DNA of 64,000 nt from Escherichia coli. GTDB lineage: Bacteria; Pseudomonadota; Gammaproteobacteria; Enterobacterales; Enterobacteriaceae. The stretch is from NCBI RefSeq assembly GCF_002854065.1, contig NZ_CP024153.1; one strand, given 5' to 3'. How positions within the stretch are numbered: position 1 is the first letter of the stretch; every line of letters begins with the position of its first letter. The notes beneath the pieces were generated by a model. The model made no database searches. It worked only from the letters and a program-made list of their open reading frames with translations, and was not told the DNA's origin. Shown here one piece after another: positions 1-57,006 of the stretch. A program made the position numbers and the translations under genes.

Positions 1-1610
1 GTATGCTCTGAGGACCTGTTTTATTAAGGACTCATCCCCTTATGTTGACCCGCAAAAGTATCGATACAGTTCTGCTCTCTGTTGGTGCTGAGAAGCTCTC
101 ACAACGAGAATGGGACTGGATGAAAATGCTCAAACCCATGGACCCACCACCTGCGATGGTGACGACCTCCATCCTGAAGCGCCGTGGCGATACAGCAGCC
201 CTTACCCTGCTACAGGATACCGGGGTTTAATCCATCCTCATGTTGTCCGGTTTTACTCCCCGCCCTCTGAAACGTCTGTTCACAGCCAACCAGTGCTGGA
301 CGTCCTTCCTGGATGCGGGCGGTCTGCGCGATATCGAGGTTGAAGCCGTCACCAAAATGCTGGCCTGCGGCACACGGATACTGGGTGTAAAAGAGTTCGG
401 GTGTGATAACCCGGACTGTCAGCACGTAAAGTACCTGACCAACTCATGCGGCAGCCGTGCCTGCCCGTCCTGCGGAAAGAAGGCCACAGACCTGTGGACA
501 GCAACACAGCTGAATCGTCTTCCTGACTGCGACTGGGTACATCTGGTCTTCACCCTGCCGGACACGCTGTGGCCGGTGTTCGAAAGCAACCGCTGGCTGC
601 TGAATGACGTGTGCCGTCTGGCGGTGGAGAATCTGCTGTATGCCGCCCGAAAACGGGGGCTGGAACCCGGTATCTTCTGCGCCATCCACACGTATGGCCG
701 TCGTCTCAACTGGCATCCGCATGTACATGTGTCTGTAACCTGTGGAGGTCTGAATAAGCATGGTCAGTGGAAAAAGCTGAGCTTCCTGAAAGACGCGATG
801 CGTTCACGGTGGATGTGGAATATGCGGCAGCTGCTTCTGAAAGCGTGGTCAGAGGGGATGGCAATGCCGGAGTCGTTGTCACATATCACGACGGAATCAC
901 AGTGGAGAAGCCTGGTGCTGAAATCCGGCGGAAAATACTGGCATGTGTACATGTCGAAGAAGACAGCCGGAGGGCGGAATACGGCACGCTACCTGGGTCG
1001 TTATCTGAAGAAGCCACCAATAGCGGCTTCCCGACTGGCTCATTACAACGGAGGGGCAAGCCTGAGCTTCCGTTACCTGGACCACAAAACGGGAGAAACG
1101 GCGACGGAAACGCTGACACAGCGTGAGCTGGTCGCGAGGCTGAAACAGCACATCCCGGAGAAGTTTTTTAAGATGGTGAGGTACTTCGGGTTCCTTGCCA
1201 ACCGTGTGTGTGGAGAGAAGCTGCCGCAGGTGTACCGTGCACTGGGGATGGATAAACCGGAACCAGTGGCGAAAGTGTGCTATGCACAAATGGTGAAACA
1301 GTTCCTGAGTCGTGACCCGTTCGAATGCGTGCTGTGTGGCTGCCGGATGGTATACCGCCGGGCCATTGCGGGGCTGAATGTATCAGGGCTGAAGAAAAAC
1401 GCGCGGGATATCAGTCTACTGAGGTATATGCCGGCCTGACACAGGCTAAGTGTGCCCGGGAATCGGTGAAAGTATAAAAAACAGCCTGTTACGGTATAAA
1501 AATCGACCATACAGAGAGGGAAACCACCGGAGTGGTGGGAAAAGCAGAAAGGCTCACGTGGCATAAGGCGTGGACAATGGTATCGACTGGTTTTTCAATT
1601 TCCTATACGT
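1..1610 (+). mobile_element. IS91-family rolling-circle IS (IS1294-like), copy 1; left end cut by window start
   Basis: Window starts inside the element; same sequence recurs inverted at 55327-56933; tnp-distal end ...cctatacgt at ~1610 followed by GAAC. Confidence 0.8.
240..1439 (+). CDS. tnpA: IS91-family (HUH, rolling-circle) transposase
   Basis: 399-aa ORF with Zn-finger-like CxxC...CPSCG and HUH motif (HPHVHV); identical copy at 55494-56693 (-), truncated copy at 13632-14579. Confidence 0.85.
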   Translation: MLSGFTPRPLKRLFTANQCWTSFLDAGGLRDIEVEAVTKMLACGTRILGVKEFGCDNPDCQHVKYLTNSCGSRACPSCGKKATDLWTATQLNRLPDCDWVHLVFTLPDTLWPVFESNRWLLNDVCRLAVENLLYAARKRGLEPGIFCAIHTYGRRLNWHPHVHVSVTCGGLNKHGQWKKLSFLKDAMRSRWMWNMRQLLLKAWSEGMAMPESLSHITTESQWRSLVLKSGGKYWHVYMSKKTAGGRNTARYLGRYLKKPPIAASRLAHYNGGASLSFRYLDHKTGETATETLTQRELVARLKQHIPEKFFKMVRYFGFLANRVCGEKLPQVYRALGMDKPEPVAKVCYAQMVKQFLSRDPFECVLCGCRMVYRRAIAGLNVSGLKKNARDISLLRYMPA

Positions 1611-1878
1611 CGAGAACTGGCTGGACAGAGGGCTAACGCGGCATGAAATTGCTGAAATCCTCGACAGCGAATACAGCTTTTCGGTAACAGCCAAAGGGCT
1701 TGAGATGGCACTGTATAGAACGCGGAAAAACCGAAAAAATGTATTGTACAACACACAACCGTCTGAGCCTGAAGCGCAGGAAAGTGAAAAAGCAGAGAGT
1801 CCCGGCATTATTGATAAAGAATTCTTCAATAAAATCGGTGAGGATTTCAACCCTAAGAAGTTCAACAAAAAATTCTGA
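1570..1878 (+). CDS. Hypothetical protein, 5' end possibly displaced by the IS1294 end
   Basis: 102-aa ORF whose first ~13 codons lie inside the IS end; no recognisable motif. Confidence 0.3.
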   Translation: MDNGIDWFFNFLYVENWLDRGLTRHEIAEILDSEYSFSVTAKGLEMALYRTRKNRKNVLYNTQPSEPEAQESEKAESPGIIDKEFFNKIGEDFNPKKFNKKF

Positions 1879-1886
1879 GGTGATTT

Positions 1887-2073
1887 ATGAAAGTAGCGGT
1901 AATTAATTACAGTGGCAGTGTTGGTAAAACCTTAATTTCATCTTACCTGTTAGCCCCGCGCCTGACTGGTGCAAAGTTCTATGCGGTAGAGACTATAAAC
2001 CAGTCTGCTTCCGATCTGGGTATTGAAAATGTGACCAGTTTTAAAGGTGACGACTTCTCACGTTTGATTGAGG
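1887..2073 (+). pseudogene. ParA/StbB-like ATPase, N-terminal fragment truncated by IS1
   Basis: MKVAVINYSGSVGKT deviant Walker-A start; RBS gaggtg upstream; ORF runs straight into the IS1 terminal repeat at 2074. Confidence 0.55.
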
Positions 2074-2088
2074 GGTAATGACTCCAAC

Positions 2089-2478
2089 TTACTGATAGTG
2101 TTTTATGTTCAGATAATGTCCAATGACTTTGTCATGCAGTTCTCCCTTCAGGCGTGATTCATAAAGCGGCCAGTCATCCGTCATCCATACCACGACCTCA
2201 AAGGCCGACAGCAGGCCCGGAAGACGCTCCAGCATGGCCAACGTGCGTTCACCGAATACGTGCGCCACAACCGTCCTCCGTATCCTGTCATACGCGTAAA
2301 ACAACCAGCGCTGGCGTGATTTAGCGCCGACGTAACCCCACTGTTCGTCCATTTCCGCGCAAACAATGACGTCACTGCCCGGTTGTATACGTGAGTTTAC
2401 CGACTGCGGCCTGAGTTTTTTAAGTGTCGTAAAATCGTGTTGAGGCCAATGCCCATAATGCGTGCACTGGCGCGGCAT
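2089..2478 (-). pseudogene. insB: IS1 InsB frame lacking ~38 internal codons
   Basis: ...[24 protein letters not shown]; the segment between LKGK and ELHDKV of canonical InsB (as recalled) is absent. Confidence 0.6.
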
Positions 2479-2672: not shown

Positions 2673-2859
2673 GGGAGCACCTCAAAAACACCATCATACA
2701 CTAAATCAGCAAGTTGGTAGCATTACCCAGAACTGGACAGAATAGGCTGTATGTCTAACTTCTGGCCACAGATATAATCGAGCCAGCAGTGCTCGCCGCA
2801 GCCGAGCGACAGGGCGAAGCCCCGAGTGAGCGAGGAAGCACCATGGAACAGTACTCATA

Positions 2860-3148: not shown

Positions 3149-3961
<813 letters not shown>

Positions 3962-4160
3962 TTGAGGGCTATCTGTCACAGATTTAAGGGTGGTTCGTCA
4001 CATTTGATCTGGAAAGTTGAGGGTGATTTGTCACAGTTTTGCTGTTCCCTCCCTGGCATCCTGCGCTTACTCATAGTTTTTTTGGCTGTAACCGGTAGTG
4101 GAGCCAGAATTGAGGGCAATTTGTCACCCTATCCTGAGGGTAGTTTGTCACACTAGATTT
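3962..4160. repeat. incC-like iteron array downstream of repE
   Basis: Repeated gagggt/caatttgtcac motifs (reverse-oriented ori2-type iterons), cut by IS1 at 4175. Confidence 0.7.
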
Positions 4161-4174
4161 TCTCCCTCTTCCCG

Positions 4175-4600
4175 GGTAATGGTGCCAACTTACTGATTTA
4201 GTGTATGATGGTGTTTTTGAGGTGCTCCCGTGGCTTCCATCTCCATCAGTTGTCCCTCCTGCTCAGCTACTGAAGGCGTGGTGCGTAACGGTAAAAGTAC
4301 TGCCGGACATCAGCGCTATCTCTGCTCTCACTGCCGTAAAACATGGCAGCTACAGTTCACTTACACCGCCTCTCAGGCCGCAGTCGGTAAACTCACGCAT
4401 ACAACCGGGCAGTGACGTCATTGTTTGCGCGGAAATGGACGAACAGTGGGGTTACGTCGGCGCTAAATCACGCCAGCGCTGGTTGTTTTACGCGTATGAC
4501 AGGATACGGAGGACGGTTGTGGCACACGTCTTCGGTGAACGTACTATGGCCACGCTGGAGCATCTTCTGAGCCTGCCGTCGGACTTTCAGGGCGCGTGGT
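4175..4600 (+). mobile_element. IS1 remnant (left IR, truncated insA, part of insB; 3' end degenerate)
   Basis: IR ggtaatggtgccaacttactgat at 4175; InsA frame diverges after FTYT; InsB frame diverges after ...GERTMATL. Confidence 0.7.
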
Positions 4601-8959: not shown

Positions 8960-9399
8960 AGAATTGAGTTGAACGAGTGGTTACATCTAGGCCAGCTAAC
9001 TCACTGAACGTAAAGGCTGTACGAAATGTTCCGACCGTCCGATAACCATTTGGCTTACTTCCGTACATTTCCTTGCGTAGATGTACAGAATTGTACGATT
9101 TCGGACACCAAAACTGCTGTTGTCACGGTGCATGAAGCCACTTTCCGGGTTGGTGGTACTGACTTTGGTGTTCTTAACGACGACGTTTTCAACTCTGAAA
9201 ATCGCCTCTCTGCACGGGGGTTTTTACCCCCCCATAGAGCCGTCATATAAATTCAAATTATTAACTTTGATGGTAGAATTATCTTAGGTTTGATAAAATT
9301 TTGAGCCGTCGCCGTTTACTTCACAGGATTCAATATAATGGCTAAATATACAGTTTGTGATTACCAATCAACTATTAGGGGGCACCTCAGAAAACGGAA

Positions 9400-10726
9400 T
9401 CTATGGTCACTCCCGTTTTTGCAACACCGATTTTGACGATAAATTGGCTTGCTTGAATCTATCCGGCGTCTGAATGGGATTTTATTCCCGCGCCTCGATG
9501 AGTTCCGCGCCTGATGAACCTCCAGAAAATATACGGCTTCAATGAGCCTTTCCGTTTTACAGGTTCCTCAACAGGCCGGTGGGCCGTTAGTATCATCAAT
9601 ATCAGTATTCGCAAAACCAGATCAGTGATTCTTTAAACCGGTGTATTTCTGCCGTTATGCTACATAAGTTTGCTGTCGTGCCGTTAGGGCCCAGGCTATT
9701 CTGGCCAGCTTGTTTGCCAGAGCACAAGTGACGACAAAGTTGCTTTTCCTACACAGTAGATCCCTGACCCAATCGGCCAATTTGCCAGACTGGTGTTCCA
9801 GTTTTTGTATGAATACCCTGGCACATTGAACCAACAAAGTTCGGATCTTTTTGTTACCTCGCTTACTAATTCCCAGCAATGTCGTCCGACCTCCCGTGCT
9901 GTACTGTCGAGGCACTAGCCCTGTTGCCGCCGCAAAGTCACGACTGCTGGCGTACTGCTTCCCGTCGCCAATCTCAGTTGAAATAGTACTCGCTGTCAGT
10001 GTTCCGACGCAGGGAATGCTCAGCAAGCGCTGTCCAATCTCATCTTCGTCCAACTTTCGTTTCAACTGGGATTCCAAATCTTTAATCTGCTCAACAAGAT
10101 AGTGATAATGCTGTTGTAATTTCAGCAATAACTGGCTGAGGTATAGAGGCAAACTATTGTCCTCAAGAAGGGTACTCAGTCGGCTAATAACGGCAGCTCC
10201 TCGTGGAACGCTGATGCCAAATTCCAGCAGAAAAGCATGCATCTGATTGGTTGTTTTTACCTTATCCTGAACCAGGGATTCACGGACACGATGCAGCGCA
10301 CGCATTGCCTGCTGAGATTCAGTTCTGGGCTGTACAAAACGCATAGACGGACGCGATGCAGCTTCACAAATAGCTTCGGCGTCGACAAAGTCGTTTTTGT
10401 TACTTTTAACGAATGGACGGACAAATTGTGGTGATATCAGCTTAGGAAAATGCCCCAACTCTTCCAACTTGCGTGCCATAAAGTGAGAGCCACCACAGGC
10501 TTCCATTGCGATGGTTGTAGCGGGGCATGTCGCCAAAAATTCGATTAACTTTGGCCGTGTAAATTTTTTACGGTAAACAGCCTTGCCGCGACGATCTTGG
10601 CAATGAATATGGAAAGAGTTTTTACCCAGATCGATACCAATGAGCGCAATGTTTTCCATGATAGTTCTCCGAATGAAAGCCTATCCTCAGCATAGTACCG
10701 GGAAGGAGGGAGTGACCATCTCATTA
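9400..10726 (-). mobile_element. IS5075/IS4321-like (IS110 family) inserted in Tn21 IRmer
   Basis: 1327-bp element at the IR position these ISs target; second copy at 50461-51787. Confidence 0.85.
9655..10659 (-). CDS. IS110-family transposase (IS5075-type)
   Basis: 334-aa MENIALIGIDLGKNSFHIHCQD... DEDD-type N-terminus. Confidence 0.85.
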   Translation of the reverse strand: MENIALIGIDLGKNSFHIHCQDRRGKAVYRKKFTRPKLIEFLATCPATTIAMEACGGSHFMARKLEELGHFPKLISPQFVRPFVKSNKNDFVDAEAICEAASRPSMRFVQPRTESQQAMRALHRVRESLVQDKVKTTNQMHAFLLEFGISVPRGAAVISRLSTLLEDNSLPLYLSQLLLKLQQHYHYLVEQIKDLESQLKRKLDEDEIGQRLLSIPCVGTLTASTISTEIGDGKQYASSRDFAAATGLVPRQYSTGGRTTLLGISKRGNKKIRTLLVQCARVFIQKLEHQSGKLADWVRDLLCRKSNFVVTCALANKLARIAWALTARQQTYVA

Positions 10727-10737
10727 AATAAAGCACG

Positions 10738-11172
10738 CTAAGGCATAGCTGACCTTGCCAGGCCTGCTTCGCCCTGTAGTGACGCGATCAACGGGCAGGA
10801 AACATTCCCCTTTCGTGCATGGCAGGCGCACACGAGTTCAGACAGCACGGTTTCCATGCGCGCCAAGTCGGCCATCTTCTCGCGCACGTCCTTGAGCTTG
10901 TGTTCGGCCAGGCTGCTGGCCTCCTCGCAGTGGGTGCCATCGTCGAGCCGCAACAGCTCGGCAATCTCGTCCAGACTGAACCCCAGCCGCTGTGCCGATT
11001 TCACGAATTTCACCCGAACCACGTCCGCCTCCCCATAGCGGCGGATGCTGCCGTAAGGCTTGTCCGGTTCCCGCAACAGGCCCTTGCGCTGATAGAAGCG
11101 GATTGTCTCCACGTTGACCCCGGCCGCCTTGGCAAAAACGCCAATGGTCAGGTTTTCCAAATTATTTTCCAT
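10738..11172 (-). CDS. merR: MerR mercury-responsive regulator
   Basis: 144 aa [33 protein letters not shown]...; divergent from merT. Confidence 0.95.
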
Positions 11173-12341: not shown

Positions 12342-15035
<2,694 letters not shown>

Positions 15036-15648: not shown

Positions 15649-16352
15649 CGAGTTCGCAGCCCGCCGGATGGACGGCGGCCGAGTTGGCGCAGGCGGCGGC
15701 GCGCGGACAGCTTGACCTGCATTACCAGCCGCTGGTCGATCTGCGCGATCACCGGATCGCTGGCGCGGAAGCGTTGATGCGCTGGCGGCATCCGAGGCTT
15801 GGCCTGTTGCCGCCCGGCCAGTTCCTGCCGCTGGCCGAGTCGTTCGGCCTGATGCCGGAAATAGGCGCGTGGGTGCTGGGCGAGGCCTGTCGCCAGATGC
15901 ACAAGTGGCAAGGACCGGCATGGCAACCGTTCCGTCTTGCCATCAATGTGTCCGCCAGCCAGGTTGGGCCAACGTTCGACGACGAGGTAAAGCGGGTGCT
16001 GGCCGATATGGCCCTGCCCGCCGAGCTTCTGGAGATCGAACTGACCGAATCGGTCGCATTCGGCAATCCAGCCCTGTTCGCCAGTTTCGACGCCTTGCGC
16101 GCCATCGGCGTGCGCTTCGCCGCCGACGACTTCGGCACCGGCTATTCCTGCCTGCAACATCTGAAATGCTGCCCCATCACCACATTGAAAATCGACCAAT
16201 CCTTTGTCGCCAGGCTCCCGGATGATGCCCGTGACCAAACTATCGTGCGGGCGGTGATCCAGCTCGCGCACGGGCTGGGCATGGATGTCATTTTCAGAAG
16301 ACGACTGCACCAGTTGATTGGGCGTAATGGCTGTTGTGCAGCCAGCTCCTGA
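15645..16352 (+). CDS. urf2: urf2M-type EAL-domain protein of Tn21
   Basis: MTSSQPAGW... EAL-domain motifs; C-terminus encoded by the IRt end of the tni module. Confidence 0.75.
   Translation: MTSSQPAGWTAAELAQAAARGQLDLHYQPLVDLRDHRIAGAEALMRWRHPRLGLLPPGQFLPLAESFGLMPEIGAWVLGEACRQMHKWQGPAWQPFRLAINVSASQVGPTFDDEVKRVLADMALPAELLEIELTESVAFGNPALFASFDALRAIGVRFAADDFGTGYSCLQHLKCCPITTLKIDQSFVARLPDDARDQTIVRAVIQLAHGLGMDVIFRRRLHQLIGRNGCCAASS
16293..16317. repeat. IRt of the Tn402-type tni module (In2 end)
   Basis: tgtcattttcagaagacgactgcac 25-bp IR immediately before tniA. Confidence 0.75.
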
Positions 16353-17678: not shown

Positions 17679-18498
17679 GGCACTGTTGCAAATAGTCGGT
17701 GGTGATAAACTTATCATCCCCTTTTGCTGATGGAGCTGCACATGAACCCATTCAAAGGCCGGCATTTTCAGCGTGACATCATTCTGTGGGCCGTACGCTG
17801 GTACTGCAAATACGGCATCAGTTACCGTGAGCTGCAGGAGATGCTGGCTGAACGCGGAGTGAATGTCGATCACTCCACGATTTACCGCTGGGTTCAGCGT
17901 TATGCGCCTGAAATGGAAAAACGGCTGCGCTGGTACTGGCGTAACCCTTCCGATCTTTGCCCGTGGCACATGGATGAAACCTACGTGAAGGTCAATGGCC
18001 GCTGGGCGTATCTGTACCGGGCCGTCGACAGCCGGGGCCGCACTGTCGATTTTTATCTCTCCTCCCGTCGTAACAGCAAAGCTGCATACCGGTTTCTGGG
18101 TAAAATCCTCAACAACGTGAAGAAGTGGCAGATCCCGCGATTCATCAACACGGATAAAGCGCCCGCCTATGGTCGCGCGCTTGCTCTGCTCAAACGCGAA
18201 GGCCGGTGCCCGTCTGACGTTGAACACCGACAGATTAAGTACCGGAACAACGTGATTGAATGCGATCATGGCAAACTGAAACGGATAATCGGCGCCACGC
18301 TGGGATTTAAATCCATGAAGACGGCTTACGCCACCATCAAAGGTATTGAGGTGATGCGTGCACTACGCAAAGGCCAGGCCTCAGCATTTTATTATGGTGA
18401 TCCCCTGGGCGAAATGCGCCTGGTAAGCAGAGTTTTTGAAATGTAAGGCCTTTGAATAAGACAAAAGGCTGCCTCATCGCTAACTTTGCAACAGTGCC
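17679..18498 (+). mobile_element. IS26 copy A
   Basis: 820 bp, 14-bp IRs ggcactgttgcaaa; tnp26 17742-18446 (234 aa, G at residue 184). Confidence 0.95.
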
Positions 18499-26942: not shown

Positions 26943-26980
26943 GGGGAGCCCGCAGAATTCGGAAAAAATCGTACGCTAAG
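26943..26980 (+). repeat. Tn1721 38-bp terminal IR
   Basis: ggggagcccgcagaattcggaaaaaatcgtacgctaag; contains the tnpA stop codon. Confidence 0.9.
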
Positions 26981-32430: not shown

Positions 32431-32468
32431 GGGGAGCCCGCAGAATTCGGAAAAAATCGTACGCTAAG
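32431..32468 (+). repeat. Tn1721 38-bp terminal IR (second copy)
   Basis: Identical to 26943-26980. Confidence 0.9.
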
Positions 32469-33980
32469 GTTTTCCGGGCATCCGTAAGGGCCGAAACTTC
32501 CCGTCTTCCAGTCTGCGGCTCTGCCGCCAGACGTAATCGCCGGTTAGGTTGATGTGCTCCCAGCCCAGCGGCGACAGGAATTGCAGCAGCTCGCCGTCCA
32601 CCGGCTTGCCGGCCTCGACCAACCCCTGGGTGGCGCGTTCCAGGTACACCGTGTTCCACAGCACGATAGCCGCCGTCACCAGGTTGAGGCCGCTGGCCCG
32701 GTAGCGCTGCTGCTCGAAGCTCCGATCCCTGATTTCCCCAAGGCGGTTGAAGAACACCGCCCTGGCCAGCGAGTTGCGCGCCTCACCTTTGTTCAGGCCG
32801 GCATGCACGCGGCGGCGCAGTTCAACACTTTGCAGCCAGTCCAGGATGAACAGCGTGCGCTCGATCCGGCCCAGCTCGCGCAGGGCCACGGCCAGTCCGT
32901 TCTGGCGCGGGTAGCTGCCGAGCTTGCGCAGCATCAGCGAGGCGGTGACGGTGCCCTGCTTGATCGAGCTGGCCAGGCGCAGGATGTCGTCCCAGTGGGC
33001 ACGCACGTGCTTGATGTTCAGGGTGCCGCCGATCAGCGGGCGCAACGTCGGGTAGGCTTGCACGCCCTGCGGCACGTACAGCTTGGTTTCGCCGAGGTCG
33101 CGGATGCGCGGCGCGAAGCGGAAGCCTAGCAGGTGCATCAGGGCAAAGACGTGATCGGTGAAGCCGGCCGTGTCGGTGTAGTGCTCCTCGATCCGCAGGT
33201 CGGACTCGTGGTACAGCAGGCCGTCGAGCACATAGGTGGAATCGCGGACGCCGACATTCACCACGCGGGTGCTGAACGGCGCGTACTGGTCGGAGATATG
33301 GGTATAGAACAGCCGTCCCGGCTCGCTACCGTACTTCGGGTTGACGTGCCCGGTGCTCTCGCCCCGGCCACCCGCGCGGAAGCGCTGGCCATCGGAGGAT
33401 GAGGTCGTGCCGTCGCCCCAGTGGGCGGCAAAGGCGTGGCGATACTGGTGGTTGACCAGCTCGGCCAAGGCCGCCGAATAGGTTTCGTCGCGGATGTGCC
33501 AGGCTTGCAGCCAGGACAGCTTGGCGTAGGTCAGGCCGGGGCTCGACTCGGCCATCTTGGTCAGCCCGAGGTTGATCGCATCACCGAGGATTGCGGACAG
33601 CAGCAACGTCCTGTCTTTGGCCTCGGCCCCGTCCTTCAAGTGGGTGAAGTGGCGGCTGAAGCCCGTCCAGTCGTCCACGTCCATCAGCAGTTCGGTGATC
33701 TTGATGCGCGGCAGTAACTGGCTGGTTTGGTCGATCAGCGCCTGCGCCCGATCCGGCACCGCCGCATCCAGCGGGGTGATTTTCAGCCCTGACTCGGTGA
33801 GGATGGCATCGGGCAGCTCGTTGTCCTTGGCCAGGCGGGTGACGGTGGCCAACTGCTCGTCCAGCAGCTGCAAACGCTCTTCCAGGTACTGGTCGCTGTT
33901 CGGGTTGATCGCCAGGGGCAGGGCCTGCTCGCGCTTGAGTGCGGCGAACTTCTCGGCCGGCAGCAGGTAGTCGTCGAAGT
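32464..33980 (-). pseudogene. tnpA: Tn1721 tnpA, 5'-truncated by IS26
   Basis: Identical to 26976-28490 region; frame fuses to the IS26 left IR at 33981. Confidence 0.85.
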
Positions 33981-34800
33981 GGCACTGTTGCAAATAGTCG
34001 GTGGTGATAAACTTATCATCCCCTTTTGCTGATGGAGCTGCACATGAACCCATTCAAAGGCCGGCATTTTCAGCGTGACATCATTCTGTGGGCCGTACGC
34101 TGGTACTGCAAATACGGCATCAGTTACCGTGAGCTGCAGGAGATGCTGGCTGAACGCGGAGTGAATGTCGATCACTCCACGATTTACCGCTGGGTTCAGC
34201 GTTATGCGCCTGAAATGGAAAAACGGCTGCGCTGGTACTGGCGTAACCCTTCCGATCTTTGCCCGTGGCACATGGATGAAACCTACGTGAAGGTCAATGG
34301 CCGCTGGGCGTATCTGTACCGGGCCGTCGACAGCCGGGGCCGCACTGTCGATTTTTATCTCTCCTCCCGTCGTAACAGCAAAGCTGCATACCGGTTTCTG
34401 GGTAAAATCCTCAACAACGTGAAGAAGTGGCAGATCCCGCGATTCATCAACACGGATAAAGCGCCCGCCTATGGTCGCGCGCTTGCTCTGCTCAAACGCG
34501 AAGGCCGGTGCCCGTCTGACGTTGAACACCGACAGATTAAGTACCGGAACAACGTGATTGAATGCGATCATGGCAAACTGAAACGGATAATCGGCGCCAC
34601 GCTGGGATTTAAATCCATGAAGACGGCTTACGCCACCATCAAAGGTATTGAGGTGATGCGTGCACTACGCAAAGGCCAGGCCTCAGCATTTTATTATGGT
34701 GATCCCCTGGGCGAAATGCGCCTGGTAAGCAGAGTTTTTGAAATGTAAGGCCTTTGAATAAGACAAAAGGCTGCCTCATCGCTAACTTTGCAACAGTGCC
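33981..34800 (+). mobile_element. IS26 copy B
   Basis: 820 bp; tnp26 34044-34748 (G184). Confidence 0.95.
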
Positions 34801-47648: not shown

Positions 47649-48470
47649 GGCACTGTTGCAAAGTTAGCGATGAGGCAGCCTTTTGTCTTATTCAAAGGCC
47701 TTACATTTCAAAAACTCTGCTTACCAGGCGCATTTCGCCCAGGGGATCACCATAATAAAATGCTGAGGCCTGGCCTTTGCGTAGTGCACGCATCACCTCA
47801 ATACCTTTGATGGTGGCGTAAGCCGTCTTCATGGATTTAAATCCCAGCGTGGCGTTGATTATCCGTTTCAGTTTGCCATGATCGCATTCAATCACGTTGT
47901 TCCGGTACTTAATCTGTCGGTGTTCAACGTCAGACGGGCACCGGCCTTCGCGTTTTGAGCAGAGCAAGCGCGCGACCATAGGCGGGCGCTTTATCCGTGT
48001 TGATGAATCGTGGGAATCTGCCACTTCTTCACGTTGTTGAGGATTTTACCCAGAAACCGGTATGCAGCTTTGCTGTTACGACGGGAGGAGAGATAAAAAT
48101 CGACAGTGCGGCCCCGGCTGTCGACGGCCCGGTACAGATACGCCCAGCGGCCATTGACCTTCACGTAGGTTTCATCCATGTGCCACGGGCAAAGATCGGA
48201 AGGGTTACGCCAGTACCAGCGCAGCCGTTTTTCCATTTCAGGCGCATAACGCTGAACCCAGCGGTAAATCGTGGAGTGATCGACATTCACTCCGCGTTCA
48301 GCCAGCATCTCCTGCAGCTCACGGTAACTGATGCCGTATTTGCAGTACCAGCGTACGGCCCACAGAATGATGTCACGCTGAAAATGCCGGCCTTTGAATG
48401 GGTTCATGTGCAGCTCCATCAGCAAAAGGGGATGATAAGTTTATCACCACCGACTATTTGCAACAGTGCC
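47649..48470 (-). mobile_element. IS26 copy E with frameshifted transposase (1-bp insertion); N184 variant
   Basis: tnp split into ORFs 47991-48425 and 47701-48024; extra a in gggaatctgcc versus gggatctgcc in other copies; RIINATLG. Confidence 0.9.
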
Positions 48471-48586
48471 TAAAAATCGACCATACAGAGAGGGAAACCA
48501 CCGGAGTGGTGGGAAAAGCAGAAAGGCTCACGTGGCATAAGGCGTGGACAATGGTATCGACTGGTTTTTCAATTTCCTATACGTGA
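48471..48586 (+). mobile_element. IS1294-like terminal fragment (tnp-distal end only, about 116 bp)
   Basis: Identical to 1495-1610; ends ...cctatacgt followed by gaac. Confidence 0.85.
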
Positions 48587-48673
48587 ACTATTGAAGTAAT
48601 CAATCAAATTTTATAGGCTGATAGCCAAGTAACAACCACCAATGATATGCCAGGTAAAATCAGGGGACGTAAA

Positions 48674-50110
48674 ATGAGTACTCTTGATGTTCAGAAGCTC
48701 AAGGATGATGCCGTCGAATGGGCCTTAACTCATGGTGTTGCTTTCAAGGAATCGTCGTATTCCGCAGTGCATACCCCGTTTACCCTGACACCAACACCTA
48801 TCAGCCGTAAATCCTATCAGTACTTAAAGAATGCAACAGGAATACTCAGCAAATTAATCTATTCAGTTTCTGAGGATCATGATTTTTTGTACTCTGCGAT
48901 TTATCCCATCAAGGCCGGGAATGCCTTCTTTTCAGCCCTCCTGAACATGCATCAACAAATCCATTCATCATCAAGGCATGCTCCTCGATTACCATTACTC
49001 ATTATGCGTAGCGACTTTATGGATGATAATCGTGATGGGTTCAGGCTTATAGAGTTCAATGGTATAGCTGCAGGAATGGGGCCGTTTGGTCAGCGGATAC
49101 ATGATCTGCATCACTATCTACAACGGCAATATCCCGCTGTCTTTTCTGATTTATCGAATCAGGCAACAGGGGCGCTTGTCGACAATCAAGCGATCGAAGG
49201 GTTATCAGCAGCGATTTGTCAGGCAACTTGCAGAATTAAGCAGGAGTTCGGAGACCCCGGCCCTGCCAGGTTCCTGATGATTGTGCAGGAGAATGAAAAT
49301 AATGTGTTTGATCAACACTTGCTTGAGCTCGCCCTCCAGCAAAAAGGAATCGAAACGCATCGCAGGACTTTTCGTGAACTGCATAATCAATTGAGTACAG
49401 GCGCCGACAACAGGCTCATTCTCGAGGGTGTAGGCCCACTTGATACCGTCTACTTACGTGCCGGATATCAGTATTCTGATTATGAAGCATTCAATATCGA
49501 TGAGCAGGAGTGTTGTCAGGCGCTGATGGCGACCCGAGTATTCATTGAGCAGCACCGGGTTGCAGTGAACGCCACAGTTGGCCAGCAACTGGCGACCAGC
49601 AAGCGAGTACAAATGCTGCTCTCGCAATTGGGTTACGACGAGTTTGTCGCATTTGGATTAACACTGCAGGAAGCTAAAATAGCAAAAACGATACTGGGTG
49701 AGATGTTACCCATCAGCCCGGATAGTATCAACCTTGCAAAAGAGTCTCCTTCGGAAACCTGGGTTCTCAAAAATCAGGGTGAAGGCGGGGGGCATTGTCT
49801 GTTTGGTGCGGATATCCTGACAAAACTGACGGAACTCACTCCACAACAATATCAGTCCTGGTCGCTGATGCGCCGTTTACACCCTCAGCCCCGAGCTATG
49901 CCCACCTTGATTGTGCGTAAAGGGGAGTTGCATAAGGTGAATGATTTGATAAGCGAACTTGGAATGTTCTCCGTGCAGACAGATAACAATCCCTCCAGTG
50001 CTGAGCACAGTTTTGCTGGATATCTAATTCGTAGCAAATCAGCTGAATCGACAGAGGGAGGGGTCCATAGTGGACAAGGTGTTTTAGACTCGCTGGTATA
50101 CAGCGATTAG
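48674..50110 (+). CDS. Eukaryotic-type glutathione synthetase homologue (ATP-grasp)
   Basis: MRSDFM, IEFNGIAAGMGPFGQR, VFDQHLLELAL...IETHRRTFREL, YLRAGYQYSDY, WVLKNQGEGGGHCLFG glycine-rich loop; alternative upstream ATG at 48647. Confidence 0.75.
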   Translation: MSTLDVQKLKDDAVEWALTHGVAFKESSYSAVHTPFTLTPTPISRKSYQYLKNATGILSKLIYSVSEDHDFLYSAIYPIKAGNAFFSALLNMHQQIHSSSRHAPRLPLLIMRSDFMDDNRDGFRLIEFNGIAAGMGPFGQRIHDLHHYLQRQYPAVFSDLSNQATGALVDNQAIEGLSAAICQATCRIKQEFGDPGPARFLMIVQENENNVFDQHLLELALQQKGIETHRRTFRELHNQLSTGADNRLILEGVGPLDTVYLRAGYQYSDYEAFNIDEQECCQALMATRVFIEQHRVAVNATVGQQLATSKRVQMLLSQLGYDEFVAFGLTLQEAKIAKTILGEMLPISPDSINLAKESPSETWVLKNQGEGGGHCLFGADILTKLTELTPQQYQSWSLMRRLHPQPRAMPTLIVRKGELHKVNDLISELGMFSVQTDNNPSSAEHSFAGYLIRSKSAESTEGGVHSGQGVLDSLVYSD

Positions 50111-50460
50111 TCCCTTTCAAGGGGGCTGAAATCTGGTTATATGAAAGCATGCGGTAAGTGGTGTTTTAGCCCCAGTGGAGATGATGCTGTTTCTAGACTG
50201 AGTCGTAGTAAGCTAATAATAGTATTATAAATGAAGCCATGAGGGTATTTACAGGGCATATCTTATTAAGGGAACAACAGCAAAAACTGCTGCTATAAGA
50301 GGCTGCACCCAAAGTTCTTCAAGGTTCACATCATCGCTGCTGGGTCGATGCTGTTTCAGTTACGGGTCAATTTTCAATACCATTAGCTGTTCCTGTGACT
50401 ACGGTCATTACGCGCTGTCGACATCAATTTGTACAGCAAACAGTCTTAGCGTGGGATATT

Positions 50461-51787
50461 TAATGAGATGGTCACTCCCTCCTTCCCGGTACTATGCTGA
50501 GGATAGGCTTTCATTCGGAGAACTATCATGGAAAACATTGCGCTCATTGGTATCGATCTGGGTAAAAACTCTTTCCATATTCATTGCCAAGATCGTCGCG
50601 GCAAGGCTGTTTACCGTAAAAAATTTACACGGCCAAAGTTAATCGAATTTTTGGCGACATGCCCCGCTACAACCATCGCAATGGAAGCCTGTGGTGGCTC
50701 TCACTTTATGGCACGCAAGTTGGAAGAGTTGGGGCATTTTCCTAAGCTGATATCACCACAATTTGTCCGTCCATTCGTTAAAAGTAACAAAAACGACTTT
50801 GTCGACGCCGAAGCTATTTGTGAAGCTGCATCGCGTCCGTCTATGCGTTTTGTACAGCCCAGAACTGAATCTCAGCAGGCAATGCGTGCGCTGCATCGTG
50901 TCCGTGAATCCCTGGTTCAGGATAAGGTAAAAACAACCAATCAGATGCATGCTTTTCTGCTGGAATTTGGCATCAGCGTTCCACGAGGAGCTGCCGTTAT
51001 TAGCCGACTGAGTACCCTTCTTGAGGACAATAGTTTGCCTCTATACCTCAGCCAGTTATTGCTGAAATTACAACAGCATTATCACTATCTTGTTGAGCAG
51101 ATTAAAGATTTGGAATCCCAGTTGAAACGAAAGTTGGACGAAGATGAGATTGGACAGCGCTTGCTGAGCATTCCCTGCGTCGGAACACTGACAGCGAGTA
51201 CTATTTCAACTGAGATTGGCGACGGGAAGCAGTACGCCAGCAGTCGTGACTTTGCGGCGGCAACAGGGCTAGTGCCTCGACAGTACAGCACGGGAGGTCG
51301 GACGACATTGCTGGGAATTAGTAAGCGAGGTAACAAAAAGATCCGAACTTTGTTGGTTCAATGTGCCAGGGTATTCATACAAAAACTGGAACACCAGTCT
51401 GGCAAATTGGCCGATTGGGTCAGGGATCTACTGTGTAGGAAAAGCAACTTTGTCGTCACTTGTGCTCTGGCAAACAAGCTGGCCAGAATAGCCTGGGCCC
51501 TAACGGCACGACAGCAAACTTATGTAGCATAACGGCAGAAATACACCGGTTTAAAGAATCACTGATCTGGTTTTGCGAATACTGATATTGATGATACTAA
51601 CGGCCCACCGGCCTGTTGAGGAACCTGTAAAACGGAAAGGCTCATTGAAGCCGTATATTTTCTGGAGGTTCATCAGGCGCGGAACTCATCGAGGCGCGGG
51701 AATAAAATCCCATTCAGACGCCGGATAGATTCAAGCAAGCCAATTTATCGTCAAAATCGGTGTTGCAAAAACGGGAGTGACCATAGA
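50461..51787 (+). mobile_element. IS5075/IS4321-like copy 2, inserted in a Tn3-family 38-bp IR
   Basis: 1327 bp; flanks reconstitute IR ggggtccgcttggaaaacgga|IS|aaatatcccacgctaag; tnp 50528-51532. Confidence 0.85.
50528..51532 (+). CDS. IS110-family transposase (IS5075-type)
   Basis: Identical 334-aa protein to 9655-10659. Confidence 0.85.
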   Translation: MENIALIGIDLGKNSFHIHCQDRRGKAVYRKKFTRPKLIEFLATCPATTIAMEACGGSHFMARKLEELGHFPKLISPQFVRPFVKSNKNDFVDAEAICEAASRPSMRFVQPRTESQQAMRALHRVRESLVQDKVKTTNQMHAFLLEFGISVPRGAAVISRLSTLLEDNSLPLYLSQLLLKLQQHYHYLVEQIKDLESQLKRKLDEDEIGQRLLSIPCVGTLTASTISTEIGDGKQYASSRDFAAATGLVPRQYSTGGRTTLLGISKRGNKKIRTLLVQCARVFIQKLEHQSGKLADWVRDLLCRKSNFVVTCALANKLARIAWALTARQQTYVA

Positions 51788-51919
51788 TTCCGTTTTCCAA
51801 GCGGACCCCGTGCTGTGTGGAAATCCGCCCACCTTGCCGGGCGCCGGTGCTGTGTGGAAATTCGCCCATCTTCATGACAAAAATTTGTCAAATGACAGGC
51901 TCATGTGTGCTGATTTATG

Positions 51920-52601: not shown

Positions 52602-53421
52602 GGCACTGTTGCAAAGTTAGCGATGAGGCAGCCTTTTGTCTTATTCAAAGGCCTTACATTTCAAAAACTCTGCTTACCAGGCGCATTTCGCCCAGGGGAT
52701 CACCATAATAAAATGCTGAGGCCTGGCCTTTGCGTAGTGCACGCATCACCTCAATACCTTTGATGGTGGCGTAAGCCGTCTTCATGGATTTAAATCCCAG
52801 CGTGGCGTTGATTATCCGTTTCAGTTTGCCATGATCGCATTCAATCACGTTGTTCCGGTACTTAATCTGTCGGTGTTCAACGTCAGACGGGCACCGGCCT
52901 TCGCGTTTGAGCAGAGCAAGCGCGCGACCATAGGCGGGCGCTTTATCCGTGTTGATGAATCGTGGGATCTGCCACTTCTTCACGTTGTTGAGGATTTTAC
53001 CCAGAAACCGGTATGCAGCTTTGCTGTTACGACGGGAGGAGAGATAAAAATCGACAGTGCGGCCCCGGCTGTCGACGGCCCGGTACAGATACGCCCAGCG
53101 GCCATTGACCTTCACGTAGGTTTCATCCATGTGCCACGGGCAAAGATCGGAAGGGTTACGCCAGTACCAGCGCAGCCGTTTTTCCATTTCAGGCGCATAA
53201 CGCTGAACCCAGCGGTAAATCGTGGAGTGATCGACATTCACTCCGCGTTCAGCCAGCATCTCCTGCAGCTCACGGTAACTGATGCCGTATTTGCAGTACC
53301 AGCGTACGGCCCACAGAATGATGTCACGCTGAAAATGCCGGCCTTTGAATGGGTTCATGTGCAGCTCCATCAGCAAAAGGGGATGATAAGTTTATCACCA
53401 CCGACTATTTGCAACAGTGCC
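52602..53421 (-). mobile_element. IS26 copy F (N184 variant)
   Basis: 820 bp; tnp26 52654-53358; RIINATLG. Confidence 0.95.
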
Positions 53422-53490
53422 GATTAGAGCACTATAAAGAACTAAAGAAATGAAGATACAAAGATACGAATATCTGAATAAAAACAGAAA

Positions 53491-53620
53491 AATGCGTACC
53501 CATCCACCTTTCAGTGCGTACCCATCCACCTTTCAGTGCGCAGCCATCCACCTTTCATGAAAATTACAGTGCGTACCCATCCACCTTTCAGTGCGTACCC
53601 ATCCACCTTTCATTTTGAGG
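53491..53620 (+). repeat. Iteron array: five tandem 22-bp direct repeats plus a sixth degenerate copy
   Basis: (a/g)tgcg(t/c)a(c/g)ccatccacctttca repeated contiguously, no spacers. Confidence 0.8.
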
Positions 53621-53783
53621 CGACAAAAAACAACACCTATCTTAATGAAATTATTGATAAAAAAACTGGCACAATGTTTGCAGAATAAGTTAGAGTAAGT
53701 TAAAGATCTTAAAGTAGATCTACCGATCTACATTTAAGATCTTAAAAACAAGAAGTTTAATAAGCAAAAAAACACAAAAAATC

Positions 53784-53831
53784 TGTGGATAACTTTGCTC
53801 AAAACAAAAAATTCACACTACCTGTGGATAA
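53784..53831. promoter_or_regulatory. Two DnaA boxes in an AT-rich stretch (origin-like)
   Basis: tgtggataa at about 53784 and about 53823. Confidence 0.6.
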
Positions 53832-54474
53832 CTTTGCGTAAACCCAGAGGACAGATCACTCTGAACCAAGACAACCACACATAAAAACAATATGCTCGCT
53901 TTTTAACCACTGCGCGTAATTGCCTGATGTTATCCCTGTGCTGTTCCGCTTCCTCGCTCACTAACTCGCTACACTCGGTCGTTCGGCTGCGGCGAGCGGT
54001 GTCTCCTTTCTCAAAACCAGAAGAGTTCAGATCATACGATCCGTTGATTGATCCTTTTTGGATCTTTCACTGAGAAGCCCTGAATCGCTTTCTAACGCTT
54101 TGTTCGATGTAACCATGAGGAAAACCATGTGAAATCGAAAAAATCGCTCAGAATGCGATACAGCGCGTTTTAGAGGGTATTTACAAAACAGTCGTTGCCT
54201 TGAGGAAATTTTGATCAAGATTGAACTCCTATCCGGATCATGGCAACAGATCACAGCAACAAGGCCGCTAAAAAGCGTTGAGCGGCGTTAAAAACCGTTA
54301 AACCGTAGCTGACTATAACGAAACGGGAAAAAACGCTCAGAACGCGTTACAGAGCGTTTTAAGGCGATGTCGGAAAGAGCCATACCTCACCTGTTCTGAT
54401 GTTTTTCTCAACACAAGCACTTTTAAGAGTACTTTTAAAGATGCTATTATGCCAATAAGACAAGCGGAGGACTT

Positions 54475-54726
54475 ATGAGCTATCAAATTCTGACAACCAC
54501 AGCGGCCAGTATTACTGACCTGAAAAAAAATCCTATGGGAACCGTAGCTGAAGGTGAAGGGGACGCTGTTGCGATCCTGAACCGAAACGAACCGGCGTTC
54601 TATTGCGTTCCACCAAAACTTTACGCCTACTATCGGGAACTCGCTGAAGATGCTGAGTTAAACGCTGTTGCTGATGAGCGCATGAAAAACCCGGAAATTG
54701 TGAAGGTTAACCTGGATGACCTATGA
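54475..54726 (+). CDS. stbD: StbD/RelB-type antitoxin (Phd/YefM family)
   Basis: 83 aa MSYQILTTTAASITDLKKNPMGTVAEGEGDAVAILNRNEPAFYCV... Confidence 0.8.
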   Translation: MSYQILTTTAASITDLKKNPMGTVAEGEGDAVAILNRNEPAFYCVPPKLYAYYRELAEDAELNAVADERMKNPEIVKVNLDDL

Positions 54727-54997
54727 ACTGGCTTTTGACCGCAGAGCACTGAAGGAATGGCAGAAACTCGGCCACACCATCCGTGAACAATTCAAAAAGA
54801 AGCTGGCAGAACGGCTGGAAAATCCACGCGTACCCGCAGCCCGGTTACATGGTCATGCTGATCGCTATAAAATCAAACTTCGTGCATCTGGCTACAGACT
54901 TGTATATCAAGTCATTGATGAGAAAGTCGTTTTACTCGTTATTGCTGTTGGAAGAAGGGAAAGCAGCGAAGTTTATCAGATTGCAGATATGCGCTGA
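54716..54997 (+). CDS. stbE: StbE/RelE-type toxin
   Basis: 93 aa MTYELAFDRRALKEWQKLGHTIREQFKKKLAERLENPRVPAARL...; overlaps stbD stop. Confidence 0.8.
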   Translation: MTYELAFDRRALKEWQKLGHTIREQFKKKLAERLENPRVPAARLHGHADRYKIKLRASGYRLVYQVIDEKVVLLVIAVGRRESSEVYQIADMR

Positions 54998-55183
54998 ACT
55001 GAAACCCGCCCCGTAATTCGCGGCTGCAGCCGCTCAGACGCGCAGATGCTACACACCGTCACGGCGTACCGTTCGCAAGCTTACGCGCTAACTGCGAAAG
55101 GCTAATTGCGTGTTGTTAGTCCGGTAATGGGCTTTGCAGGGAGGGGGGATGTCCCTGATCTTAATTAAGCTGGTTTGTTTCCG

Positions 55184-55326
55184 GGCACTGTTGCAAAGTT
55201 AGCGATGAGGCAGCCTTTTGTCTTATTCAAAGGCCTTACATTTCAAAAACTCTGCTTACCAGGCGCATTTCGCCCAGGGGATCACCATAATAAAATGCTG
55301 AGGCCTGGCCTTTGCGTAGTGCACGT
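55184..55326 (-). mobile_element. IS26 fragment (right IR and 3' end of tnp26), cut by IS1294
   Basis: ggcactgttgcaaagttagcg... to ...gcgtagtgcacg then IS1294 end. Confidence 0.85.
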
Positions 55327-57006
55327 ATAGGAAATTGAAAAACCAGTCGATACCATTGTCCACGCCTTATGCCACGTGAGCCTTTCTGCTTTTCCCACCA
55401 CTCCGGTGGTTTCCCTCTCTGTATGGTCGATTTTTATACCGTAACAGGCTGTTTTTTATACTTTCACCGATTCCCGGGCACACTTAGCCTGTGTCAGGCC
55501 GGCATATACCTCAGTAGACTGATATCCCGCGCGTTTTTCTTCAGCCCTGATACATTCAGCCCCGCAATGGCCCGGCGGTATACCATCCGGCAGCCACACA
55601 GCACGCATTCGAACGGGTCACGACTCAGGAACTGTTTCACCATTTGTGCATAGCACACTTTCGCCACTGGTTCCGGTTTATCCATCCCCAGTGCACGGTA
55701 CACCTGCGGCAGCTTCTCTCCACACACACGGTTGGCAAGGAACCCGAAGTACCTCACCATCTTAAAAAACTTCTCCGGGATGTGCTGTTTCAGCCTCGCG
55801 ACCAGCTCACGCTGTGTCAGCGTTTCCGTCGCCGTTTCTCCCGTTTTGTGGTCCAGGTAACGGAAGCTCAGGCTTGCCCCTCCGTTGTAATGAGCCAGTC
55901 GGGAAGCCGCTATTGGTGGCTTCTTCAGATAACGACCCAGGTAGCGTGCCGTATTCCGCCCTCCGGCTGTCTTCTTCGACATGTACACATGCCAGTATTT
56001 TCCGCCGGATTTCAGCACCAGGCTTCTCCACTGTGATTCCGTCGTGATATGTGACAACGACTCCGGCATTGCCATCCCCTCTGACCACGCTTTCAGAAGC
56101 AGCTGCCGCATATTCCACATCCACCGTGAACGCATCGCGTCTTTCAGGAAGCTCAGCTTTTTCCACTGACCATGCTTATTCAGACCTCCACAGGTTACAG
56201 ACACATGTACATGCGGATGCCAGTTGAGACGACGGCCATACGTGTGGATGGCGCAGAAGATACCGGGTTCCAGCCCCCGTTTTCGGGCGGCATACAGCAG
56301 ATTCTCCACCGCCAGACGGCACACGTCATTCAGCAGCCAGCGGTTGCTTTCGAACACCGGCCACAGCGTGTCCGGCAGGGTGAAGACCAGATGTACCCAG
56401 TCGCAGTCAGGAAGACGATTCAGCTGTGTTGCTGTCCACAGGTCTGTGGCCTTCTTTCCGCAGGACGGGCAGGCACGGCTGCCGCATGAGTTGGTCAGGT
56501 ACTTTACGTGCTGACAGTCCGGGTTATCACACCCGAACTCTTTTACACCCAGTATCCGTGTGCCGCAGGCCAGCATTTTGGTGACGGCTTCAACCTCGAT
56601 ATCGCGCAGACCGCCCGCATCCAGGAAGGACGTCCAGCACTGGTTGGCTGTGAACAGACGTTTCAGAGGGCGGGGAGTAAAACCGGACAACATGAGGATG
56701 GATTAAACCCCGGTATCCTGTAGCAGGGTAAGGGCTGCTGTATCGCCACGGCGCTTCAGGATGGAGGTCGTCACCATCGCAGGTGGTGGGTCCATGGGTT
56801 TGAGCATTTTCATCCAGTCCCATTCTCGTTGTGAGAGCTTCTCAGCACCAACAGAGAGCAGAACTGTATCGATACTTTTGCGGGTCAACATAAGGGGATG
56901 AGTCCTTAATAAAACAGGTCCTCAGAGCATACATATTCTGCGGGGCGTGCGGCAACAACAGGACGAACCGGGGCGGTTTTCAATTTGCAGCCGCCAGGCT
57001 GCCGTG
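55327..57006 (-). mobile_element. IS91-family IS (IS1294-like), copy 3; outer boundary approximate
   Basis: Inverted duplicate of 1-1610; outer end assumed near the IS50 junction at about 57006. Confidence 0.75.
55494..56693 (-). CDS. tnpA: IS91-family transposase
   Basis: Identical 399-aa protein to 240-1439. Confidence 0.85.
   Translation of the reverse strand: MLSGFTPRPLKRLFTANQCWTSFLDAGGLRDIEVEAVTKMLACGTRILGVKEFGCDNPDCQHVKYLTNSCGSRACPSCGKKATDLWTATQLNRLPDCDWVHLVFTLPDTLWPVFESNRWLLNDVCRLAVENLLYAARKRGLEPGIFCAIHTYGRRLNWHPHVHVSVTCGGLNKHGQWKKLSFLKDAMRSRWMWNMRQLLLKAWSEGMAMPESLSHITTESQWRSLVLKSGGKYWHVYMSKKTAGGRNTARYLGRYLKKPPIAASRLAHYNGGASLSFRYLDHKTGETATETLTQRELVARLKQHIPEKFFKMVRYFGFLANRVCGEKLPQVYRALGMDKPEPVAKVCYAQMVKQFLSRDPFECVLCGCRMVYRRAIAGLNVSGLKKNARDISLLRYMPA

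Follow-up and report, generated by a model that had tools for sequence, protein, structure and literature searches.

Four footprints of IS1294 within an IncF-type multiresistance plasmid of Escherichia coli

IS1294 is a rolling-circle insertion sequence of the IS91 family (Tavakoli et al. 2000, as reported in PMC6052338 and PMC13181058). The tetranucleotide 5'-GTTC is both its target, adjoining the oriIS end, and the cleavage site at terIS, where it lies beside a subterminal palindrome (PMC13181058); the last 4 bp of terIS are GTTC (PMC5043248). In 1-14% of IS1294 events terIS is not used as the stop (PMC13181058), and one-ended products of IS91 and IS1294 finish at GTTC or CTTG look-alikes, e.g. 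the IS1294-truncated ISEcp1-blaCMY-2 (PMC5043248). The tetranucleotides CTCG and GTGC are documented as minor targets of the related IS91, not of IS1294 (PMC13181058). On a larger scale, IS26- or IS1294-mediated large inversions were reported in IncC plasmids (PMC7652850), and F33:A-:B- plasmids carry segments in opposite orientation adjoining IS1294 (PMC6052338). The latter study also described an IS26/IS1294 boundary module, noted "gshB ... and 114 bp of the oriIS end of IS1294" in pHNFP460-1 and pABWA45_3, and described the linkage of IS1294, IS50 and aph(3')-IIa.

The stretch of DNA analyzed here (64,000 nt, hereafter the window) comes from an IncF-type plasmid (FIA repE) and lies within its multiresistance region, where we found seven IS26 copies, two IS4321/IS5075-like copies and four footprints of IS1294. 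Such an arrangement is ordinary, well documented and already known. The explanation that we favor, and consider highly probable, combines the arrival of IS1294 within modules, new insertions of the element, and an un-inverted parental state.

Identity and ends of the IS1294 copies

Two identical, inverted copies of IS1294 had been reported by the initial annotation at the window start and about 55 kb away, and both are there: positions 1-1610 and 55323-56932 are 100% complementary over 1610 nt, with 53,712 nt between them, a match far beyond chance that places long, near-identical inverted repeats on either side of the segment, as in an IS-bounded invertible segment. The second copy (copy 2; 55323-57010, minus strand; oriIS at 55323) is indeed full-length at 1688 bp, but its end had been set at 57006, which omits the terminal GTTC; the true end is 57010. 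The other member of the pair is copy 1 (1-1610, plus strand; assigned from its 100% inverted match to copy 2, Pfam and its end sequences), of which 1610 nt are visible. The window start cuts 78 bp off its terIS end, as position 1 is the counterpart of 56932 whereas the element extends to 57010. These 78 bp are expected to begin GAACCACGGCAGCC... beyond the window start. Copy 1 carries a 62-aa ORF at 42-230, then tnpA at 240-1439 (plus strand), and its oriIS end (...TTTCAATTTCCTATACGT) falls at 1610; in copy 2, tnpA occupies 55494-56693 (minus strand).

The element itself shows no difference from described IS1294, and only its stbA and merA sites are new to the collections searched. Its tnpA is a 399-aa ORF that combines an HUH (Y2) transposase (Pfam PF04986 Y2_Tnp, E 1.2e-57) with an N-terminal IS91-type zinc-binding domain (PF14319 Zn_Tnp_IS91, E 1.9e-21), as in IS1294. 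Database copies annotated as IS1294 are 99.4-99.9% identical to it, among them AB605179, AB576781 and AP014566, in which the gene is called "IS1294 transposase" (99.4%). Its boundaries were calibrated on an independent, simple IS1294 insertion in urf2 of pHN7DS11, where GTTC is followed by the same 1688 bp with a single mismatch to copy 2. The ends read ACGTATAGG... and ...CCGTGGTTC, and IS1294 and the element alike lack terminal inverted repeats and target-site duplications, the flanks in merA and in urf2 of pHN7DS11 being contiguous with the empty site. The terIS of copy 2 (56987-57010) consists of the hairpin GCAGCC-GCCA-GGCTGC and, after a gap of 4 nt, the terminal GTTC; folded over 49 nt it has a free energy of -10.9 kcal/mol; a subterminal palindrome beside a 5'-GTTC cleavage site is what IS1294 is described to have. 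All four IS1294 pieces in the window retain the oriIS end. The tetranucleotide 5' of it is the expected GTTC (GTTC or CTTG being the targets looked for) at the merA piece and at a 114-bp remnant. Copy 1 has CTCG there and copy 2 has GTGC, both of which are IS91 minor targets with T at position 2.

The window begins inside an IS, and IS copies are a common cause of breaks in short-read assemblies; the initial annotation proposed that the start of the window at an IS end may reflect such a break. This suggestion was not borne out. Because the start lies 78 bp within the element, not at its edge, and the sequence runs unbroken across copy 2, two IS1294 fragments, seven IS26 and two IS4321/IS5075-like copies, as an assembly limited by repeats would not, an assembly break is not indicated. 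The junction of copy 1 with stbA, moreover, falls exactly at the oriIS terminus beside a documented minor target, as a genuine insertion would give but a chimeric join would not. We therefore regard it as very improbable that repeat collapse produced copy 1, whether as an artefact of assembly or as the boundary of a contig or record, with the window start marking an unresolved repeat. Assembling this plasmid needs reads longer than 1.7 kb for each IS1294 copy and longer than 0.8 kb for each IS26 copy.

Footprints that came with known modules

The fourth footprint, noticed previously as an end fragment at 48.5 kb, is a 114-nt oriIS-end remnant (48471-48584, plus strand; 100% identity), direct with respect to copy 1. 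An 822-bp, frameshifted IS26 copy (47649-48470, minus strand) cuts it off, and on its other side come the bases GAAC, which read 5'-GTTC on the transferred strand, and then gshB (48647-50110; Pfam glutathione synthase match). A ble-like ORF at 47175-47552 would have pointed to an IS26 inversion had it been the other half of Tn5 ble, but this reading was dropped: Pfam gave the generic glyoxalase/Ble fold only, and the ORF presumably resembles a bleO-type protein unrelated to Tn5 ble.

The oriIS end of copy 2 abuts a 139-bp fragment comprising one end of IS26 (55184-55322, minus strand); repeat matches reach 55325-55328 only because of a few bases (ACG) common to IS26 and IS1294 where the two meet. 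On the terIS side lie a 5'-truncated IS50 and aph(3')-IIa (57011-59264, plus strand; transposase ORF 57011-58363, aph(3')-IIa 58470-59264), which are the DNA that read-through from copy 2 would mobilize. Copy 2 occurs with both of these flanks in at least 101 PLSDB plasmids, and is annotated with them in pSDC-F2_12BHI2. Over 52602-64000 the window is 100% identical to and collinear with the module IS26 fragment-IS1294-truncated IS50-aph(3')-IIa-IS26-oqxAB; the same module, with oqxAB (Tn6010), is found in IncHI2 and F33:A-:B- plasmids (pSDC-F2_12BHI2, pHNZY32), which fits PMC6052338, whereas here its setting is an IncF (FIA repE) multiresistance region, and a second, inverted IS1294 accompanies it. 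Both copy 2 and the 114-bp remnant came with modules already in the literature. In the order of events that we infer, copy 2 would have arrived within its widespread module and the remnant, already cut by IS26, with an IncN-derived gshB/repA module.

Insertions in stbA and merA

The other two footprints interrupt plasmid genes that are intact in pLAO83, a plasmid 99.9-100% identical to the window over positions 1610-22427. Copy 1 is followed by the 3' part of stbA (1611-1878, plus strand), whose empty site lies at position 3355/3356 of the uninterrupted stbA of pLAO83. The target 5' of oriIS on the transferred strand, CTCG, is non-canonical. No match to the IS1294/stbA junction was found in PLSDB, 5,426 complete E. 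coli genomes, JGI metagenome contigs or GTDB genomes. A simple insertion of copy 1 would predict the 5' part of stbA as the upstream flank, running up to ...CCTAAATGAAAT.

The window shows the oriIS side of copy 1 only, its terIS flank lying outside, and the 5' part of stbA was not found anywhere within the window. Copy 1 might accordingly mark where a larger one-ended transposition, or a plasmid fusion, ends, with foreign DNA upstream in place of the 5' part of stbA. The frequency with which IS1294 misses terIS (1-14%; PMC13181058) and the captures of IncI1, IncN and IncX1 segments in related plasmids (PMC6052338) speak for such an origin, as does the absence of the stbA 5' end, but no positive evidence for it was seen, and we consider it unlikely.

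The third fragment, which the initial annotation had placed in merA, is a 948-bp segment (13632-14579, minus strand; 100% identity), inverted with respect to copy 1 and direct with respect to copy 2. It comprises the element from oriIS as far as an internal GTTC at element positions 945-948, so that tnpA is limited to its 3' 65%. The target, 5'-GTTC, lies directly 5' of the oriIS of the insert (13628-13631, plus strand; ...CCGCA GTTC GTCTATG... in pLAO83), and by comparison with pLAO83 merA is contiguous across the insert, with merA sequence neither lost nor duplicated, i.e. the insertion is precise. The transferred strand of the element contains only three GTTC, at 348, 945 and the terminal 1685, and the insert ends exactly at one of the two internal sites. 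No terIS-like hairpin was found beside the GTTC at 945 (-5.0 kcal/mol, z -0.33, versus -10.9 for terIS), so the tetranucleotide would have to bring about termination there unaided. The IS1294/merA junction was likewise not found in PLSDB, the 5,426 complete E. coli genomes, JGI metagenomes or GTDB genomes. Only two matches reached at least 80% coverage, and both were spurious: in pHN7DS11, merA is intact and the full IS1294 lies in urf2, and in pZ1323CEC0016-3 an IS1294b-like element (~94.5% identical) occupies a different merA site.

Because the insertion is precise at 5'-GTTC and stops at an internal GTTC, the sequence suggests that the 948-bp insert arose from early termination and not from decay; a deletion between the internal and terminal GTTC after full-length insertion could equally give it. 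The insert resembles one-ended IS91/IS1294 products in its constant oriIS end at a GTTC target and in a variable end finishing in GTTC. In contrast to them, its variable end lies inside the element (at 948 bp), not beyond terIS, leaving it shorter than the IS and without passenger DNA. We propose tentatively, and with somewhat less than even confidence, that it is a rolling-circle product stopped early at a hairpin-less GTTC, a non-autonomous mini-IS1294 that keeps oriIS and the GTTC target and is perhaps mobilized in trans by the full-length copies.

Copy 1 and the merA piece look like recent rolling-circle insertions, because both are absent from all collections searched and both sites are empty in pLAO83. 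From these two plasmid-private junctions and the 100% identity of the copies we infer rolling-circle transposition activity. After the arrival of the modules, the transposase would have produced two new insertions inside the plasmid lineage, perhaps with copy 2 as the donor: one placed a full-length copy in stbA, at the minor target 5'-CTCG, and the other placed in merA, at the canonical 5'-GTTC, a 948-bp product that finished at an internal GTTC and did not reach terIS. That copies 1 and 2 point in opposite directions would then be a mere result of which stbA strand was hit.

Inversion, mobilization and deletion

That such repeats can mediate inversion, as the initial annotation stated, is a sound general principle with precedent for IS1294 (PMC7652850). 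Copies 1 and 2 are a good substrate for RecA-dependent inversion, and inversion of 1611-55322 by homologous recombination is possible, although the sequence gives no sign that it has occurred. As in the IncC plasmids of PMC7652850, inverted IS copies flank tens of kilobases; there, however, the isomers were seen by comparison with relatives, whereas here parental linkage only is seen. The relatives do not show the segment in both orientations, and junctions with exchanged flanks gave no record in PLSDB, complete E. coli genomes, JGI metagenomes or GTDB genomes. Copy 2 retains both of the flanks that accompany it in at least 101 other plasmids, so the window shows the parental isomer and not an inverted one.

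Perfect inverted repeats of 1.6-1.7 kb offer recombination an ample substrate, and the inversions in IncC plasmids and the opposite-orientation segments beside IS1294 in F33:A-:B- plasmids (PMC6052338) lend some weight to the view that the arrangement has already been inverted by recombination between the copies, or that the population is a mix of both isomers. A prior inversion, however, would have parted the oriIS and terIS flanks of copy 2, which occur together in those plasmids; the 5' part of stbA, absent from the window, is not joined to copy 2; and a single consensus sequence cannot display a mixture. We give this view very little credence compared with the parental state.

With both oriIS ends pointing inward, neither copy is able to mobilize the intervening 54 kb; what rolling-circle read-through would take, from copy 1 as from copy 2, is outer DNA. 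The 54-kb segment was considered as an IS1294-bounded transposable unit and rejected, as read-through exits via terIS into the outer flanks.

IS1294 and IS26 are standard agents in the reshaping of such resistance plasmids, in which multiple copies are routine, and the significance of the present arrangement is mostly bookkeeping. Larger consequences than those of the inversion put forward earlier attach to the merA fragment and copy 2, which form 948-bp direct repeats 41.7 kb apart: one recombination between them would delete sul3, tet(A), qnrS2, blaOXA-1, aac(6')-Ib-cr, dfrA12 and aadA2, i.e. most of the resistance genes. If the proposed origin of the merA insert is true, this insertion and the one at CTCG in stbA would show present activity of IS1294 in this plasmid, and a bare tetranucleotide would be able to stop transfer short of terIS and not just beyond it, making the merA insert a small mechanistic curiosity for students of IS91-family termination.

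Plasmid context and IS1294 content

A map of the window was built from matches to annotated plasmids and from Pfam. From the left end it runs, in order, through IS1294, an stbA remnant, IS1, repE (FIA), IS1, a CAAX protease gene, pemIK, a DUF262 gene and IS4321; a Tn21-type mer operon, with merA split by a 948-bp piece, and IS26; a mef(B) fragment and sul3, a Tn1721-type tet(A) region and IS26-qnrS2-IS26; integron cassettes aac(6')-Ib-cr, blaOXA-1, catB3 and arr-3, IS26, dfrA12-aadA2 and IS26; a 114-bp IS1294 remnant, gshB, an IS5075-like element, a truncated IncN repA and IS26; and, at the right end, stbDE, an IS26 fragment, IS1294, a truncated IS50, aph(3')-IIa, IS26, oqxR and oqxB. The window is a typical IncF multiresistance region, as in animal and human Enterobacterales. 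The IS1 pieces (2193-2760 and 4142-4594) are diverged (92-94% identical) and inverted around repE (3206-3961), and directly duplicated Tn1721/TnAs1 tnpA segments (26943-28728 and 32431-33980) flank the tet(A)-tetR region. There are two class 1 integrons with a truncated intI1, one holding aac(6')-Ib-cr-blaOXA-1-catB3-arr-3 and the other dfrA12-gcuF-aadA2.

The initial annotation had described inverted IS1294 copies at the window start, which begins inside one of them, and at about 55.3-57.0 kb, together with a fragment in merA and an end fragment at 48.5 kb, and scanning the full window for repeats recovered all four. Positions 1-1610 (copy 1, + strand) and 55323-56932 (in copy 2, - strand) are perfect reverse complements over 1610 nt, separated by 53,712 nt. 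The merA piece (13632-14579, 948 nt) runs in the orientation of copy 2, opposite to copy 1, and the remnant (48471-48584, 114 nt) in that of copy 1; all pieces are mutually 100% identical. Both long copies hold a 399-aa ORF (240-1439, +, and 55494-56693, -) with Y2_Tnp and Zn_Tnp_IS91 Pfam domains, whose gene matches database records named 'IS1294 transposase' at 99.4%. Just upstream of this tnpA is a conserved 62-aa ORF without a Pfam match (42-230 and 56703-56891; annotated hypothetical, WP_000957857.1), positioned like orf121 of IS91 but not overlapping the tnpA start.

Element boundaries and target sites

The comparison plasmid pHN7DS11 carries an independent full-length IS1294, one base different from copy 2, as a simple insertion at a site that is empty in the window (~15960-15990). 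The empty site reads ...GGGCCAAC GTTC GACGACGAGG... and the occupied one GTTC / ACGTATAGG ... 1688 bp ... CCGTGGTTC / GACGACGAGG, the element lying 3' of its GTTC target without a target duplication. IS1294 is therefore 1688 bp long, reaching from its oriIS end, which reads ACGTATAGG on the window + strand, to a GTTC at its other terminus, in agreement with published accounts of a 5'-GTTC target next to oriIS and a 5'-GTTC terIS cleavage site beside a palindrome (PMC13181058), and of a terIS whose final 4 bp are GTTC (PMC5043248). Copy 2 thus occupies 55323-57010, ending four bases beyond the 57006 first annotated; its predicted terIS hairpin is GCAGCC-GCCA-GGCTGC.

The oriIS end is present in each of the four pieces. 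The tetranucleotide 5' of it, read along the transferred strand, is the canonical target GTTC in two cases, the merA piece and the 114-bp remnant beside gshB. At copy 1 it is CTCG, within stbA, and at copy 2 it is GTGC, within a 139-bp end fragment of IS26 (55184-55322). Both CTCG and GTGC are among the minor targets of the related element IS91, in which T is conserved at position 2 (PMC13181058, Table 2).

The suggestion that the window start at an IS end may reflect an assembly break found no support. The start cuts copy 1 at 78 bp from its terIS end rather than at an element edge, the sequence runs on through all other repeats, the second full IS1294 included, and the copy 1/stbA junction (1610) coincides exactly with the oriIS terminus and has a plausible target next to it. 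As it reads, the sequence gives no sign of an assembly artefact at copy 1.

Origin of the IS1294 pieces

Copy 2 with both flanks (53400-59500) occurs in at least 101 PLSDB records at 80% coverage or more, many of them 100% identical, and this module was described in F33:A-:B- and IncHI2 plasmids (PMC6052338). The same paper reports, nearly verbatim, the 114-bp remnant by gshB and IncN repA in pHNFP460-1 and pABWA45_3. The related plasmid pLAO83 matches window positions 1610-22427 at 99.9-100% identity, with stbA and merA both uninterrupted, and searches of PLSDB, 5,426 complete E. coli genomes, JGI metagenome contigs and GTDB genomes gave no second case of the IS1294/stbA junction or of the one in merA. 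From the 100% identity of all pieces, we infer that this plasmid lineage acquired copy 1 and the merA piece recently, by insertion; in the simplest case, copy 2 would have been the source of element and transposase for both.

The merA piece is not a decayed remnant: merA is contiguous across its insert (pLAO83, ...CCGCA GTTC GTCTATG...; window, ...CCGCA GTTC / 948 bp / GTCTATG...). The insert's last bases, ...ACCGGGTTC, are an internal GTTC (element positions 945-948), one of three on this strand (348, 945 and the terminal 1685); a random breakpoint would fall on either internal one about once in 800. Apart from its length the insert has the anatomy of a normal insertion, which points to transposase cleavage at the internal GTTC, through either early termination during transfer or later deletion from the internal to the terminal GTTC. 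Fold prediction gave no terIS-like hairpin at this GTTC, making it similar to the bare GTTC look-alikes at which one-ended transposition products stop (PMC5043248, PMC6052338).

The Tn21 mer/urf2 region has received repeated insertions of IS1294-family elements at different GTTC sites: pHN7DS11 has the full IS1294 in urf2 (L005, 3227-4918), and a second comparison plasmid, pZ1323CEC0016-3, has a ~94.5% identical, IS1294b-like element in merA and urf2 (L006, 1501-3213 and 4987 onwards). Earlier work already covers IS1294, its modules and the recombination scenarios; only two insertion sites private to this plasmid and the insert that ended at an internal GTTC are mildly new.

Recombination between repeats

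Copies 1 and 2 are a competent substrate for RecA-dependent inversion. That they can invert the intervening 54 kb, as first proposed, is a reasonable generic possibility, given IS1294-mediated inversions in IncC plasmids (PMC7652850), and recombination between IS1294 copies was invoked for F33:A-:B- plasmids (PMC6052338), but there is no evidence that it occurred here. Recombination would swap the pairing of oriIS and terIS flanks; copy 2 keeps the flank pair found in at least 101 other plasmids (PLSDB), and the 5' part of stbA was not found anywhere in the window, indicating that the window shows the parental isomer. Nor is the 54-kb segment a transposable unit: both oriIS ends point into it and transfer proceeds from oriIS to terIS, so rolling-circle transposition would take the outer flanks instead.

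Copies 1 and 2 are one pair among many in the window: comparable substrates are IS26 in both orientations, an inverted IS4321/IS5075-like pair and inverted intI1 pieces. The IS4321/IS5075-like elements (9378-10742 and 50445-51809; 1.37 kb each, 99% identical, 39.7 kb apart) lie at the Tn21 mer end and between gshB and the truncated IncN repA, the latter matching an 'IS5075 insertion' noted in PMC6052338. The intI1/5'-CS pieces (41947-42595 and 43629-44277; 649 bp, 100% identical) belong to the two class 1 integrons and are head to head around the IS26 at 42769-43588.

Seven IS26 copies were found, five on the + strand (17679-18498, 33981-34800, 37344-38163, 42769-43588 and 59458-60277) and two on the - strand (52602-53421 and 47649-48470). 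No copy has an 8-bp target duplication at its ends, a pattern suggesting that recombination or conservative routes, and not simple insertion, placed them. Four are identical, and the other three have G459A and GG613-614AA in common, of which the GG to AA change resembles the Tnp26 G184N 'IS26-v1' variant. The 822-bp copy at 47649-48470 has two single-base insertions that leave its transposase in two ORFs (47701-48024 and 47991-48425), and it is probably inactive.

Over its 948 bp, the merA piece is also a perfect direct repeat of positions 55323-56270 in copy 2, at a distance of 41,691 bp. If these two recombined, most of the resistance genes would be lost, among them sul3, tet(A), qnrS2, blaOXA-1, aac(6')-Ib-cr, dfrA12 and aadA2.
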